From a virus (lineage: Duplodnaviria > Heunggongvirae > Uroviricota > Caudoviricetes), in IMG/VR virus record IMGVR_UViG_2541047849_000001: DNA of 11,884 nt; one strand, written 5' to 3'. The notes beneath the pieces were generated by a model. It searched no databases. It had not been told where the DNA came from and worked only from the letters and a program-made list of their open reading frames with translations. The translations under genes were made by a program, and so were the position numbers. Positions 1,369-11,884 of the stretch are shown here, one piece after another. Within the stretch, counting starts at the first letter, position 1, and every line of letters starts with the position of its first letter.

Positions 1369-1444
1369 GCCGATATAGCTCAGTTGGTAGAGCAGCGCAT
1401 TCGTAATGCGAAGGTCGTAGGTTCGACTCCTATTATCGGCACCA
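1369..1444 (+). tRNA. thrW: tRNA-Thr (anticodon CGU)
   Basis: 76-nt sequence GCCGATATAGCTCAGTTGGTAGAGCAGCGCATTCGTAATGCGAAGGTCGTAGGTTCGACTCCTATTATCGGCACCA with cloverleaf features, anticodon CGT at 1402-1404 and 3' CCA; known integration target for P22/SfV-type integrases. Confidence 0.95.
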
Positions 1445-1458
1445 TTAAAATCAATAAG

Positions 1459-2622
1459 TTACACATCATTAGTACCTTCCTTATTTTTTGACTGGGACAA
1501 ATTTGGGACCGATGGGTTCAGGATCGAGTCTATTTGCCGTGCGTGTTCGGTAAGGTGATTAGGTGCAAGGTGAGCATATCGACGAACCATTTCGATAGAC
1601 TCCCAGCCTCCCATTTCCTGTAAAACTGACAACGGGACTCCGGCTTGAACCAGCCAACTTGCCCAGGTGTGTCTCAAGTCGTGAAATCTGAAATCATCAA
1701 TACCAGCCCGTCTCAGCGCCGCTTTCCAGGCTGTGTTTGCGTCATACCGCATCTTCCTTACTGTTGGCGCTTTCGTTCCGTCTGGTTTGGTACAGCTTTC
1801 CTTGTACACAAATACCCAACGGTGATGATTCCCGATTTGTTTTTTCAATACGCGACATGCAGTATCATTCAGCGCAACGCCAATTGCGCGGTTTGATTTA
1901 CTCTCTTCCGGGTTTATCCATGCCACCCGGCGCTGCATATCTATTTGTTGCCATTCAAGGTTGATGATGTTCGAGCGTCTTAAGCCTGTTGCCAGTGCAA
2001 ATTCAACAACAGACTTTAATGGCTCCGGACATTCATCAATCAGCCTTTGTGCTTCATGGGGCTCCAGCCAGCGGATCCGTTTATTCTTTGGTTGAGGCAC
2101 TTTAATAATTGGTGCCTTATCCAGCATTTTCCATTCACGCTCTGCGGCTCTTAGTAGGGCCTTTATAAATGAAAGATGCGTAGCCTTCGTTGCAACGGAC
2201 GCTGGTTTTGGCGTGTATTCTGGAACAGGTTTCCCTTTTTTTCTGCATGCTTCTGCCCTGAGTTTCCAGTTTTCCTCATGACGCCGGTTTGTCATTTTCT
2301 GCATCGCTGAATAAATTTTTGATTCAGTGATGTCTCTTAGTTGCATCCCTGCGAAATGTTGAAGCCAGAATCCGATCCGGCTTTTGTCATCGTCCAGTGA
2401 TTTCTTATGTGCTTTCTCTTCGAGCCACCTGACACACGCTTCCTCAAACGTCATATCAGGTATTTCACCAAGTTTGCTGACCCGCCATGCTTCAGCCTTT
2501 AGCTTGTCATGGAGCTCTGTCGCCTGCCTTTTGTCCTTTGTTCCAAGAGACTGTTTAAATCTTTTACCGTTCGGCAATGTGAAACTGGCGTACCATATTT
2601 CACTTCTGCGGAAGAGTGACAT
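1459..2622 (-). CDS. int: Phage integrase, tyrosine site-specific recombinase (P22/SfV-type, thrW-specific)
   Basis: 387-aa ORF with the C-terminal catalytic signature HDLRHT...RYAHL (H-x-x-R and Tyr nucleophile); sits immediately 3' of thrW and converges on it; N-terminus MSLFRR as I recall for P22-family Int. Confidence 0.93.
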
Positions 2623-2849
2623 TTTCTTTCCTCTGTTATGCCATCACCCGCGCTCACCTTGATAGTATGCAGCGGAGACTGAAGCGCCGCAATGCAGGCT
2701 TGTCGCGTTGTGAGGTAAGGAGATTTTGGTTTAGTGGGGTCTTTGCGTGTTGCCTGTAGGCGGCCTGTTCGTATCCAGTTGGTAGCGGTAGGTCTGGATA
2801 TCTTGAGAAACTGACAGGCCTCATCGAGTGTGAGGCTGTATGATTCCAT
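2499..2849 (-). CDS. xis: Excisionase (Xis), helix-turn-helix DNA-binding protein
   Basis: 116-aa reading from internal ATG at 2849 ([31 protein letters not shown]..., HTH-like), preceded by GAGGT RBS; overlaps the 5' end of int as in lambdoid/P22 xis-int; the ORF-track start at 2879 would add 10 residues. Confidence 0.8.
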
Positions 2850-3099
2850 GGTTACCTCTGCTTTTTGAACGCATGTCACGTAACTTCTTAATGTGTTCTG
2901 CCGTTTCGATCTCTTCTACTATCCGATCTGCATCAGCTTTATTCACAGGTTCAAAGTCATGATTAAAGCGGAACATGCTGGCGATACATGTTCTGCCTTT
3001 TCGGATGTAGTGAACTTTGTTGTGGGTAGAACGCAGGATTTTGCAGGGAGTGCCGTGGTGGTCGACGTACCAGGTGTTAGGAAAAATGATTCTGAACAT
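2821..3099 (-). CDS. Hypothetical phage early protein (92 aa)
   Basis: ORF with strong RBS (TGAGGTGTAAAA-ATG) and ATG at 3099; ends 29 nt inside the xis start; no family recognised from sequence alone. Confidence 0.55.
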   Translation of the reverse strand: MFRIIFPNTWYVDHHGTPCKILRSTHNKVHYIRKGRTCIASMFRFNHDFEPVNKADADRIVEEIETAEHIKKLRDMRSKSRGNHGIIQPHTR

Positions 3100-3146
3100 T
3101 TTTACACCTCAGTTGGACGATGTTGAAATTTGCTGCTTTGAGGCCA

Positions 3147-9838: not shown

Positions 9839-10251
9839 TGAGGACGATTGAAGCCATGCAGCGACAACTCCTCGGCCTGATTGGGCGGGCAGTGGTGAAA
9901 AGCATCAGTGCCGCCACGAAATGTCAGACCGTGGATGTGTCCCTGATTGCCGGTGAACCCAAAGCCGGGGTTGAACATCTTGAACCCTATGGTTTTACCG
10001 CAAGGGCAAACAGCGGTGCGGAAGCGGTGGTGTTGTTTCCGGATGGTGACCGTTCTCATGCGGTGGTTGTTACGGTGTCGGACCGGCGCTACCGCCTGAA
10101 AGGGCTGCAGACGGGTGAGGTGGCTGTCTATGACGATCAGGGGCAGTCCGTGACGCTGGCCCGGGAGGGGATCGTGGTGGACGGTGCAGGTAAAACGATC
10201 ACGTTTCGCAATGCGCCTATATGCGCTGGGAAGGTGTCAGCGATGGCCTGA
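9838..10251 (+). CDS. Baseplate spike protein, gpV family (Mu gp45-like), probably C-terminally truncated
   Basis: 137-aa ORF, start overlaps gpP stop (TGATG) with AGGAGGA RBS; contains a gpV-like region (EPYGF...VVLFPDGDRS...) and the start of the beta-helix, but ends short of the full length I recall for gpV/gp45 proteins (about 200 aa). Confidence 0.65.
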   Translation: MRTIEAMQRQLLGLIGRAVVKSISAATKCQTVDVSLIAGEPKAGVEHLEPYGFTARANSGAEAVVLFPDGDRSHAVVVTVSDRRYRLKGLQTGEVAVYDDQGQSVTLAREGIVVDGAGKTITFRNAPICAGKVSAMA

Positions 10252-11003
10252 AGGTGACTGCCGGGAGTGTTATTCAGCGCGATGACCTGGTTCAGTACAC
10301 GGCAACTGCCGATGCAACCAGCTCCGGTGGTGTCCTGCGCGTGCCGATCGCCTGCTCAACTGCAGGCGCGGTCGGTAACGCTGACGATGGTACGGCATTA
10401 ATCCTGGTCACGCCGGTGAATGGTCTGCCGTCTTCCGGTGTGACTGACACCCTGACAGGCGGATTTGATACAGAAGATCTGGAAACGTGGCGCGCCCGCG
10501 TCATTGAGCGGTATTACTGGACGCCGCAGGGCGGGGCTGACGGGGACTATGTCGTCTGGGCTAAAGAAGTGCCCGGCATTACCCGCGCATGGACATACCG
10601 TCACTGGATGGGAACGGGAACTGTCGGTGTGATGATTGCCGGCAGTGACCTGATTAATCCCATTCCGGAAGAATCAACGGAAACGGCGGCAAGACAACAC
10701 ATTGAGCCACTGGCCCCGGTGGCAGGCTCTGATTTGTATGTGTTCAGGCCGGTGGCGCATACGGTGGATTTTCATATCCGCGTGACGCCGGACACACCGG
10801 AAATACGGGCTGCCATCACCGCCGAGTTGCGTTCGTTCCTGCTGCGTGATGGTTATCCGCAGGGAGAACTGAAGGTGTCACGTATCAGTGAAGCGATTTC
10901 CGGTGCGAACGGGGAATATAGCCATCAGTTGCTTGCACCGGCGGACAATATCTCCATTGCAAAAAATGAGCTGGCAGTTCTGGGGACGATTTCATGGACG
11001 TGA
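10221..11003 (+). CDS. Baseplate J family protein (Mu gp47 / P2 gpJ-like), apparently lacking its N-terminal region
   Basis: 260-aa ORF with baseplate-J-like central and C-terminal sequence (...[34 protein letters not shown]...); in-frame stop at 10191 upstream; overlaps the spike ORF out of frame. Confidence 0.7.
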
Positions 11004-11578
11004 CAAACGATGATTATATCCGTCTGTTGTCGGCACTGTTGCCGCCCGGTCCGGCGTGGTCAGTCAGCGATCCGGCGATTGCCGGTGCAGCACCGTCATT
11101 AACCCGTGTTCATCAGCGTGCGGATGCCCTGATGAGGGAGCTGGATCCGCGCACCACCACCGAACTGATAAACCGCTGGGAGCGTCTGTGCGGCCTGCCG
11201 GATGAATGTATTCCCGCAGGGACACAGACCCTTCGCCAGCGTCAGCAACGGCTGGATGCGAAGGTTAACCTGGCGGGCGGCATCAACGAGGATTTTTATC
11301 TTGCACAGCTTGCTGCCCTGGGCAGACCAGATGCCACCATCACGCGATACGACAAAAGCACCTTCACCTGCTCATCGGCCTGTACTGACGCGGTGAATGC
11401 GCCGGAATGGCGGTATTACTGGCAGGTCAACATGCCAGCTGCCACCAACACCACCTGGATGACATGTGGTGATCCCTGTGATTCCGCACTGCGTATCTGG
11501 GGCGACACCGTTGTCGAGTGTGTGCTTAACAAACTCTGCCCTTCGCATACCTACGTAATTTTTAAATATCCGGAGTAA
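10994..11578 (+). CDS. Mu gp48-like baseplate/tail protein (YmfQ-like, DUF2313-type)
   Basis: 194-aa ORF overlapping the J stop; length and sequence match what I recall of the YmfQ/gp48 family that follows baseplate J and precedes the tail fibre in Mu-like modules (including prophage e14). Confidence 0.8.
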
Positions 11579-11581
11579 TCC

Positions 11582-11884
11582 ATGCATCGTATAGACACGA
11601 AAACCGCGCAGAAGGATAAGTTCGGCGCGGGTAAGAACGGTTTTACCCGTGGTAACCCCCAGACCGGCACACCTGCCACCGATCTGGATGATGACTACTT
11701 TGACATGTTGCAGGAAGAACTCTGCAGCGTGGTGGAGGCATCCGGTGCCAGCCTGGAGAAGGGGCGGCATGACCAGCTGCTTACTGCGCTTCGTGCGCTG
11801 CTGTTAAGCCGCAAGAATCCGTTTGGCGATATCAAATCTGATGGCACGGTGAAAACGGCTCTCGAAAACCTTGGTTTGGGAGAA
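11582..11884 (+). CDS. Tail fibre protein, conserved N-terminal domain (partial; runs off the window end)
   Basis: Open frame from ATG 11582 (GGAG RBS 5 nt upstream) to the window end with no stop, so not in the ORF track; translation [53 protein letters not shown]... is the conserved N-terminus of Mu S / Stf-type fibres. Confidence 0.8.

Follow-up and report, generated by a model that had tools for sequence, protein, structure and literature searches.

We analysed a window of 11,884 nucleotides, part of scaffold KE701198.1 of the Escherichia coli draft assembly GCA_000459575.1 and recorded as virus sequence IMGVR_UViG_2541047849_000001, which carries the tRNA gene thrW and, from there to its end, an element of phage origin integrated into that gene. 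Our comparisons leave little doubt that this element is the defective remnant of a temperate myovirus of the SfV/SfI/SfIV type, disabled by one deletion of 25 kb and by two smaller lesions in its tail genes. The completeness of each gene was checked by tblastn, protein families were assigned with Pfam, PHROG and PADLOC, and RNAs with ARAGORN and Rfam; the Rfam scan of the window matched only thrW. Lesions were mapped against an apparently intact thrW prophage of 41,883 bp in E. coli NADC1036, and the frequency of the deletion junctions was determined in 5,426 complete E. coli genomes. The integration site lies at the left end of the window:

1-1254: proA, upstream of thrW
1369-1444, plus strand: thrW, tRNA-Thr(CGU), the integration target (ARAGORN; Rfam tRNA, 71.8 bits)
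1399-1445: attL core (the published 46-bp core is 1399-1444; identity with attR extends to 1445)

Integration is site-specific in thrW, and the 46-bp core is duplicated at both ends of the element. The core, ATTCGTAATGCGAAGGTCGTAGGTTCGACTCCTATTATCGGCACCA (window 1399-1444), is the att core published for SfI, SfII, SfV, SfX and P22 (PMC3636060), and the attP feature of SfI aligns starting at window position 1399. An exact second copy, attR, lies about 5.5 kb past the window end, in a stretch of the source scaffold that reaches beyond the window (hereafter L008): the core occupies L008 17209-17254, and one further base, to 17255, is identical in both copies, the whole being equivalent to window positions 17429-17475. 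From att to att the element measures 16,030 bp, including a scaffold gap of 2,015 N that begins directly after window position 11884. Past attR the sequence is chromosomal, with a yagP-like LysR fragment followed by XdhC- and xanthine-dehydrogenase-family genes, which are paoD and paoC in the H9Ecoli annotation. An earlier note on this DNA, made from the letters of the window, had suggested searching downstream for a direct repeat of the thrW 3' end, and the exact copy at attR is that repeat. The same note had placed the attL core in the 3' part of thrW, at about 1399-1458; the overlap with thrW stands, but the core ends at 1444/1445 and not at 1458. Its 15-bp distance between thrW and the end of the integrase gene is borne out by the position of the int stop codon relative to thrW 1444.

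The integration genes and the early-left genes follow on the minus strand:

1459-2622, minus strand: tyrosine integrase (Int) of the P22/SfV type, full length, 387 amino acids (aa) (Pfam Phage_integrase, E 5e-48)
2499-2849, minus strand: excisionase (Xis), full length, 116 aa (Pfam HTH_17; 99.1% identical to SfI Xis over 116/116 aa)
2821-3099, minus strand: DUF4222 early-left gene, full length, 92 aa (Pfam DUF4222, E 2e-19; 96.7% identical to SfI_0030)
3147-3365, minus strand: TraR/DksA-type zinc-finger protein, full length, 72 aa (Pfam zf-dskA_traR; 98.6% identical to SfI_0031)
3464-3679, minus strand: hypothetical early-left gene, 71 aa (annotated in the source record and in NADC1036)
3756-4313, minus strand: orphan phage N6-adenine DNA methyltransferase of the Dam family, full length, 185 aa (Pfam Dam, E 2e-56)
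4306-4443, minus strand: DUF1317 remnant, start codon and first 10 codons gone (tblastn residues 11-51 of 54; Pfam DUF1317)
4438-4443: junction of a 25,297-bp deletion (6-bp microhomology TACCCG)

The minus-strand block from int to position 4443 spans 2.98 kb including int, in agreement with the early block of about 2.9 kb described before. Int is 99.7% identical to SfI Int over 387/387 aa and the int-xis DNA is 81% identical to that of P22, which upholds the assignment of a P22-type integration module; from 1399 to about 3760, the left arm matches the int-xis-early regions of SfI and of the E. coli phage phi458 at 98-99% identity. The Dam-family gene matches the PADLOC orphan methyltransferase model (E 8e-32) and is present in the same place in NADC1036. 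At 100% identity, it is also widespread in prophages of Shiga-toxin-producing E. coli. Neither Pfam nor PADLOC assigned a family to the 71-aa hypothetical protein, and PADLOC gave no match for the small early-left proteins, nor for the pin and AraC-family products encoded beyond the window.

From 4438 to the window end the genes lie on the plus strand and encode a contractile tail:

4439-4693, plus strand: tail sheath 3' remnant, residues 415-498 of 498 (tblastn 100% over 84 aa; Pfam Phage_sheath_1C; PHROG tail sheath)
4693-5049, plus strand: tail tube protein, full length, 118 aa (100% identical to NADC1036; PHROG tail tube, E 1e-44; PF10618)
5046-5369, plus strand: tail assembly chaperone, full length, 107 aa (100% identical to NADC1036; PF10109 Phage_TAC_7)
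5454-7361, plus strand: tape measure gene of 635 codons, split by a nonsense codon into two in-frame open reading frames (ORFs), 5454-6830 and 6834-7361
7386-8762, plus strand: DNA-circulation/Mu gp43-like baseplate hub, full length, 458 aa (100% identical to NADC1036; PF07157 DNA_circ_N; PHROG baseplate hub)
8759-9838, plus strand: Mu gp44 (gpP)-like baseplate hub, full length, 359 aa (99.4% identical to NADC1036)
9838-10251, plus strand: Mu gp45/gpV-like spike gene, truncated (tblastn residues 1-127 of 182, then about 10 out-of-frame codons; PF06890)
10218-10219: junction of an 853-bp deletion (2-bp overlap TA)
10218-11003, plus strand: baseplate J/Mu gp47-like remnant, residues 92-352 of 352 (tblastn; PF04865; PHROG baseplate wedge)
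10994-11578, plus strand: YmfQ/Mu gp48-like baseplate wedge, full length, 194 aa (PF10076 Phage_Mu_Gp48; PHROG, E 1e-84)
11582-11884, plus strand: tail fibre gene, constant N-terminal part, 101 codons, cut by the scaffold gap (99% identical to residues 1-101 of the NADC1036 fibre)
11870-11884: left arm of a 15-bp perfect inverted repeat, TTGGTTTGGGAGAAG, bracketing the scaffold gap (gap region at L008 11666-13695)

That this tail is Mu-like, as previously claimed, is supported by matches to solved Mu structures (residues 1-348 of the gp44-like hub to Mu gp44, PDB 1WRU/9KI1, E 2.4e-50; the gp45/V fragment to Mu gp45, PDB 9KI1_V, E 2e-13) and to the Pfam families Phage_Mu_Gp45, Phage_Mu_Gp48 and DNA_circ_N. 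The protein searches against phage databases that the earlier note had proposed, with P22/SfV-type Int and Xis and Mu or SfV tail proteins as its expectation, recovered Int and Xis of the SfI/P22 type and tail proteins of the Mu/SfIV type. At the nucleotide level, the right arm is collinear with SfIV 9014-17313 at 96-98.7% identity, and identity with NADC1036 reaches 99.8%. Annotation of the J remnant begins at an internal ATG at 10221 and gives an ORF of 260 aa, and a protein identical to the 194-aa YmfQ is very widespread.

The alignment to other thrW regions, likewise proposed in the earlier note, yielded the intact relative in NADC1036 and allowed both deletion end points to be mapped. The NADC1036 prophage agrees with the element in its left arm, down to the Dam and DUF1317 genes, in its tail module and in its cargo (pinE, a GIY-YIG gene, an AraC-family gene and a scrap of an insertion sequence (IS)), and the element in the source strain is collinear with it but for two gaps. 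The lengths balance exactly: 41,883 - 25,297 - 853 = 15,733 = 16,030 - 2,015 + 1,718, where 1,718 bp is the length in NADC1036 of the segment that lies in the source scaffold gap. The lambdoid myoviruses SfI, SfIV and SfV use thrW as their integration site and have head and tail genes related to e14 and an early region related to that of lambda (PMC3636060). Besides this lambdoid early region, phages of the type carry Int and Xis like those of P22, a head of the HK97 type and a contractile tail resembling that of Mu, and both the organisation of SfI and SfIV and the thrW att core have been published (PMC3636060, PMC3851460). The likeness of the element to these phages and to intact E. coli thrW prophages extends to the thrW site, the 46-bp core, Int and Xis, the early-left genes, a collinear tail at 98-99.8% identity, the pin segment and the cargo slot. 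It differs from them in that about 26 kb are gone (recombination, immunity, replication, nin, Q, lysis, terminase and head genes, most of the sheath, and the stretch from V through gp46 into J), in the nonsense codon in the tape measure gene, and in a cargo of CMoRE and an AraC-family gene instead of gtrABC.

Judged from these comparisons, the pairing of P22-type integration genes with a Mu-like tail is the normal make-up of the SfV/SfI/SfIV/e14 group (PMC3636060) and not a new fusion. The locus had earlier been described as a mosaic in which two modules are fused; both module types are indeed present, but their adjacency stems from one internal deletion of 25.3 kb and not from recombination between two phages. 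Recombination of a P22-like phage, as the donor of the integration arm, with a Mu-like phage or tail cluster could account for the 81% identity of int-xis to P22 and for the homology of the tail proteins to Mu gp44 and gp45. Against such an origin, single phages and prophages that hold both modules (SfI, SfIV, NADC1036) match the two arms collinearly at 98-99.8% identity, the two sides of the junction, which carries microhomology, both fall within a single parental genome, and the element lacks a Mu transposase, Mu ends and any other gene specific to Mu, so that we regard such an origin as very improbable.

How the two arms came together can be read from the first junction, which was analysed by three-way sequence comparison. 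In NADC1036 coordinates, position 300456 is joined to 325748, so that the 5' end of the minus-strand DUF1317 gene meets codon 415 of the plus-strand sheath gene, and sheath codons 1-414 (83%) are lost. Following the annotation of NADC1036, the deleted segment held among its early genes exo, bet, gam, the cell-division inhibitor kil, an S24-peptidase repressor, a cro-like regulator and YdaT; in its middle part replication genes, ren, an AAA-ATPase/RloB pair, nin-region genes, rusA and Q; for lysis and packaging the holin, lysozyme, Rz1, HNH and both terminase subunit genes; and for the head and tail the portal, protease, major capsid, connector, tail terminator and DUF2635 genes. With TACCCG present at both parental sites and as a single copy at the junction, the sequence bears the signature of one event of microhomology-mediated illegitimate recombination. 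A side product of the deletion is a chimeric ORF of 90 aa (window 4421-4693), which starts at an out-of-context ATG at 4421, antisense to the DUF1317 remnant, and is in frame with the last 84 sheath codons. The source annotation gives an 88-aa version of it and, on the opposite strand, a DUF1317 "gene" of 41 aa that begins with the codon ATC.

Junction 1 (window 4240-4640 searched) is spanned in none of the 5,426 complete genomes, and neither is junction 2 (window 10020-10420 searched); both deletions are therefore private to a narrow lineage. Could the adjacency of int and tail, and the lesions, instead be mis-joins and errors of a draft assembly, the real prophage being complete? The assembly is scaffolded and has a 2-kb N gap at the window end, and E. 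coli ET201, the sole complete genome to cover 84% of the window, has a normal phage gene order, although ET201 is itself rich in frameshifts. Yet the sequence that holds junction 1 and the tape measure TAG codon is free of gaps, and both features recur base for base (100% over window 3087-7505) in a 4.4-kb Logan contig, ERR4578576_219, from the independent sequencing run ERR4578576, which is listed for six samples. In addition, a 6-bp overlap is insufficient for assemblers to join reads, and the att-to-att arithmetic closes exactly. An assembly artefact is, on this evidence, highly unlikely.

The tail module that the deletion left behind is itself damaged. A C-to-T change at 6828 converts codon 459 of the tape measure gene from CAG, as found in NADC1036 and SfIV by codon-by-codon comparison, to TAG (6828-6830). 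The 853-bp deletion cuts gp45/V after residue 127, removes gp46 and takes residues 1-91 of J, with the V and J remnants in different reading frames. The earlier note was right that the tail module carries lesions: of the sheath only residues 415-498 remain, the tape measure gene carries a TAG, gp45/V is cut, gp46 is absent, and gp47/J lacks residues 1-91. A contractile-tail block without head genes superficially resembles tailocin loci, and SfV-related tails elsewhere are reportedly co-opted as tailocins (PMC4542187), which raises the question of whether this headless module is kept as an R-type killing device. Such domestication seems to us the least credible of the alternatives, given that 83% of the sheath is gone, the tape measure stops at codon 459, gp45 and gp47 are truncated and gp46 is absent, that the genes preceding the sheath, for the tail terminator and DUF2635, were deleted as well, and that there is no lysis cassette, regulator or late promoter from attL to attR. 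The full-length tail proteins are 97.9-100% identical to their NADC1036 counterparts, and only 10 substitutions separate the two in 5,782 bp. Differences of 0-2 residues from the full-length tail genes of the intact relative, with three of five identical, point to recent decay rather than long erosion.

No lost function is restored beyond the window. Between the window end and attR lie only the invertible fibre segment, in the gap, and then, in order, a gene for a Pin-type invertase (184 aa), a gene for a GIY-YIG protein of 257 aa, the AraC-family regulator gene, and a 61-aa transposase scrap (rve_3), the remnant of an IS. The earlier note had described a locus without head, lysis or immunity genes, a description that their appearance downstream would overturn; the sequenced part from attL to attR holds no head, terminase, lysis, repressor or replication gene. 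Its diagnosis of a cryptic prophage in decay, neither a functional phage nor an intact tailocin locus, is therefore sustained by the tail lesions and by the absence of any restored function up to attR. A satellite or mobilisable island that keeps int, xis and att and is packaged by a helper phage of the SfV type would also have intact int, xis, attL and attR, a small size (about 15.7 kb here) and, as many satellites do, a defence gene. But the cos region next to the small terminase gene, the replication genes and any candidate helper-interference genes are all in the deleted segment, what remains is simply the parental flanks of the deletion, and the junctions are private (0 of the 5,426 complete genomes). 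Measured against P4-like and PICI-like satellites, the element contains no replication or primase module of its own, no helper-interference genes and no packaging signal, and we consider a satellite improbable in the extreme.

The history of the defective prophage is as follows. A parent organised like the 41.9-kb prophage of NADC1036 integrated into the 3' end of thrW by the action of Int; a single TACCCG-mediated deletion united the early arm and the tail arm, and the TAG codon in the tape measure gene and the 853-bp deletion disabled the tail further. In lambda, transcription of int and xis starts at pL, with antitermination by N, and at pI, which depends on cII, and the late genes depend on Q at pR'. 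By analogy, the left early promoter, N, cII and the Q-dependent late promoter of the parent would have lain in the deleted DNA, and the surviving blocks, which diverge from the junction, would have lost their native promoters. The tail genes are probably silent, and expression of int and xis would be weak at most. A scan of 1300-5600 for consensus promoters and terminators returned five promoter-like sites, compared with 4.5 expected, and none was created at the junction toward the tail genes. We infer that the element can neither produce particles nor lyse its host, and neither gives immunity nor serves as a tailocin, because the repressor, replication, Q, lysis, cos/terminase, head and sheath functions, the full tape measure and the complete baseplate are gone. 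Excision is formally possible, because int, xis, attL and attR are all intact, but would probably need Int and Xis to be supplied or induced in trans, and would be likeliest where a related phage provides them. The genes that could still act are the orphan Dam methylase gene and, beyond the window, those for Pin, the CMoRE/PD-T4-3 nuclease and the AraC-family regulator.

Several points weigh against this reading or complicate it. No exact parent was found; about 2 kb of the element falls in the scaffold gap and is unsequenced; and the 853-bp junction has no independent sequence confirmation. Two sequences were considered for that purpose and set aside: the contig of GCA_030936295.1 that encodes a 260-aa protein identical to the J remnant has its first base within an intact J gene, the bases upstream of the ORF being J and not V, and an ENA contig (L010) begins at the junction itself and is uninformative. 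Moreover, divergence from NADC1036 is 0.17% up to junction 2, becomes 4% exactly at that point and holds this level for the rest of the window, returning to 0.7% after the scaffold gap. The best match to 10219-11884 (99.6%) is found in prophages of the same tail type that lie next to ssrA in other strains, and of 13 relatives (NADC1036, H9Ecoli, LZYWN_4 and ten loci with an identical YmfQ) none is near-identical on both sides of the junction. It could be that junction 2 is the illegitimate end of a recombination patch, comprising J, YmfQ and the fibre, from another SfV-type phage; alternatively, the parent may have had a mosaic boundary within the 853 bp that were later deleted. Either reading of junction 2 leaves the verdict of a defective prophage unchanged.

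By its features, the element is integrated site-specifically in thrW and has P22-type Int/Xis and a Mu-like tail in the SfV gene order, while cos, the P27-type terminase, the HK97-type head and the lambdoid immunity, replication, Q and lysis functions that belong to the SfV/SfI/SfIV type are missing. It is a member of this group by descent, as a remnant, and not as a functional phage. A comparable remnant of the same group is e14 of E. coli K-12 (PMC3636060), which keeps int/xis, the baseplate and fibre genes ymfQ, stfP and tfaP, a pin-invertible segment and, as cargo, the type IV restriction gene mcrA. Compared by description only, e14 differs as a defective lambdoid prophage at icd with another integrase and other deletion end points. 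With the tail and baseplate of Mu (gp43-gp48), the element shares homologous proteins in the same order (DNA_circ_N/gp43, gp44, gp45, gp47/J, gp48); the homology is at the protein level only, and here the tail belongs to a lambdoid phage that integrates site-specifically, with no transposase A/B, Mu ends or Mu regulatory genes between attL and attR. The cryptic prophage CP4-6 at K-12 thrW we take to occupy the same slot, between proA-thrW and the yagP/pao genes; its content, compared by description only, is presumably unrelated to this element and much older.

The related prophage of ET201 (NZ_CP100994.1 3586572-3633033) was also considered as a second instance of the same arrangement, since no other complete E. 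coli genome has 80% or more of the window in one place (84% in ET201), and was rejected, the order there being that of a normal phage (tail, cargo, int, early genes). This prophage contains a roughly 40-kb direct duplication from nin to terminase and dozens of frameshifted genes. These anomalies are probably long-read assembly errors or an assembled concatemer and make it unsuitable as a reference.

The part of the element beyond the window holds features of its own. Intact relatives have, at the position of the scaffold gap, oppositely oriented fibre and assembly genes together with pinE, and the inverted repeat at 11870-11884 is expected to be where Pin crosses over to invert the fibre segment. 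The break in the assembly may stem from the inverted repeats or from cells of both orientations in the population. The GIY-YIG gene (L008 14377-15150, minus strand) is intact, encodes 257 aa and lies about 2.7 kb past the window end, inside the element. Residues 1-256 of its product align with 1-255 of the 256 positions of the PADLOC PD-T4-3 model (E 2e-140), and the protein matches PDB 9U75, CMoRE of E. coli O157:H7 (E 4e-172, 257 aa), a type IV nuclease reported to cut phage DNA containing 5-hydroxymethylcytosine (5hmC) and glucosyl-5hmC (PMC12923530). With CMoRE and PD-T4-3, the locus thus shares a single full-length GIY-YIG homologue, which here is cargo of a remnant, outside the window and known from its sequence. 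The gene is probably functional as a defence against T-even phages, restriction of phages with 5hmC or glucosyl-5hmC DNA being reported for its homologues (PMC12923530).

Between the GIY-YIG and AraC-family genes, a 70-nt stretch (L008 15327-15396) repeats the 3' part of a chromosomal tRNA-Ser gene without a mismatch (100% identity), a sequence that occurs in 5,422 of the 5,426 E. coli genomes; ARAGORN makes no call at L008 15327-15396. Situated in the cargo region next to the 61-aa transposase scrap, it looks like the fossil att site of another integrative element, and the same arrangement is present in NADC1036. Across SfV-type prophages, the slot between pin and attR varies in content, with gtrABC in Shigella phages and, in other cases, DUF262/DUF4365/DUF4145 genes, HNH, an autotransporter or CMoRE, and this position next to attP behaves as a variable moron and defence slot. 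In NADC1036, a second tyrosine integrase gene and small P4-like genes (Icd-like, DUF5375) follow directly past attR (L007 17758-21594), which suggests that thrW there carries a second element in tandem. This set is absent from the source strain, where yagP/paoD are found instead.

In practical terms, the locus should be annotated as a defective SfV-type prophage and not as an intact phage or a tailocin. The element is a strain-specific case of a very well known kind, the defective prophage, and its value is that of a worked example of prophage disarming, in which one microhomology-mediated deletion is mapped to the base against an intact relative. That deletion would have taken both divergent promoters and everything between them, while sparing the integration machinery and the gene for an anti-phage nuclease. 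Tentatively, and with the odds rather against it, one may speculate that the remnant is a "grounded" island of defence and cargo genes that still swaps baseplate and fibre DNA with SfV-type phages as a reservoir of tail genes: a single deletion would have removed all lethal and lytic functions and the native promoters, and spared Int, Xis and the att sites, the Dam methylase and the moron slot. If this were true, the host would keep an anti-T-even defence without the risk of induction, and the lineage switch at the 853-bp junction would represent continuing exchange with other SfV-type phages. The persistence of defence cargo and the tail-gene reservoir are ideas already established in general terms. 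The locus adds a data point to two known themes, namely defective prophages as carriers of defence cargo and the variable cargo slot beside attP in SfV-type phages.

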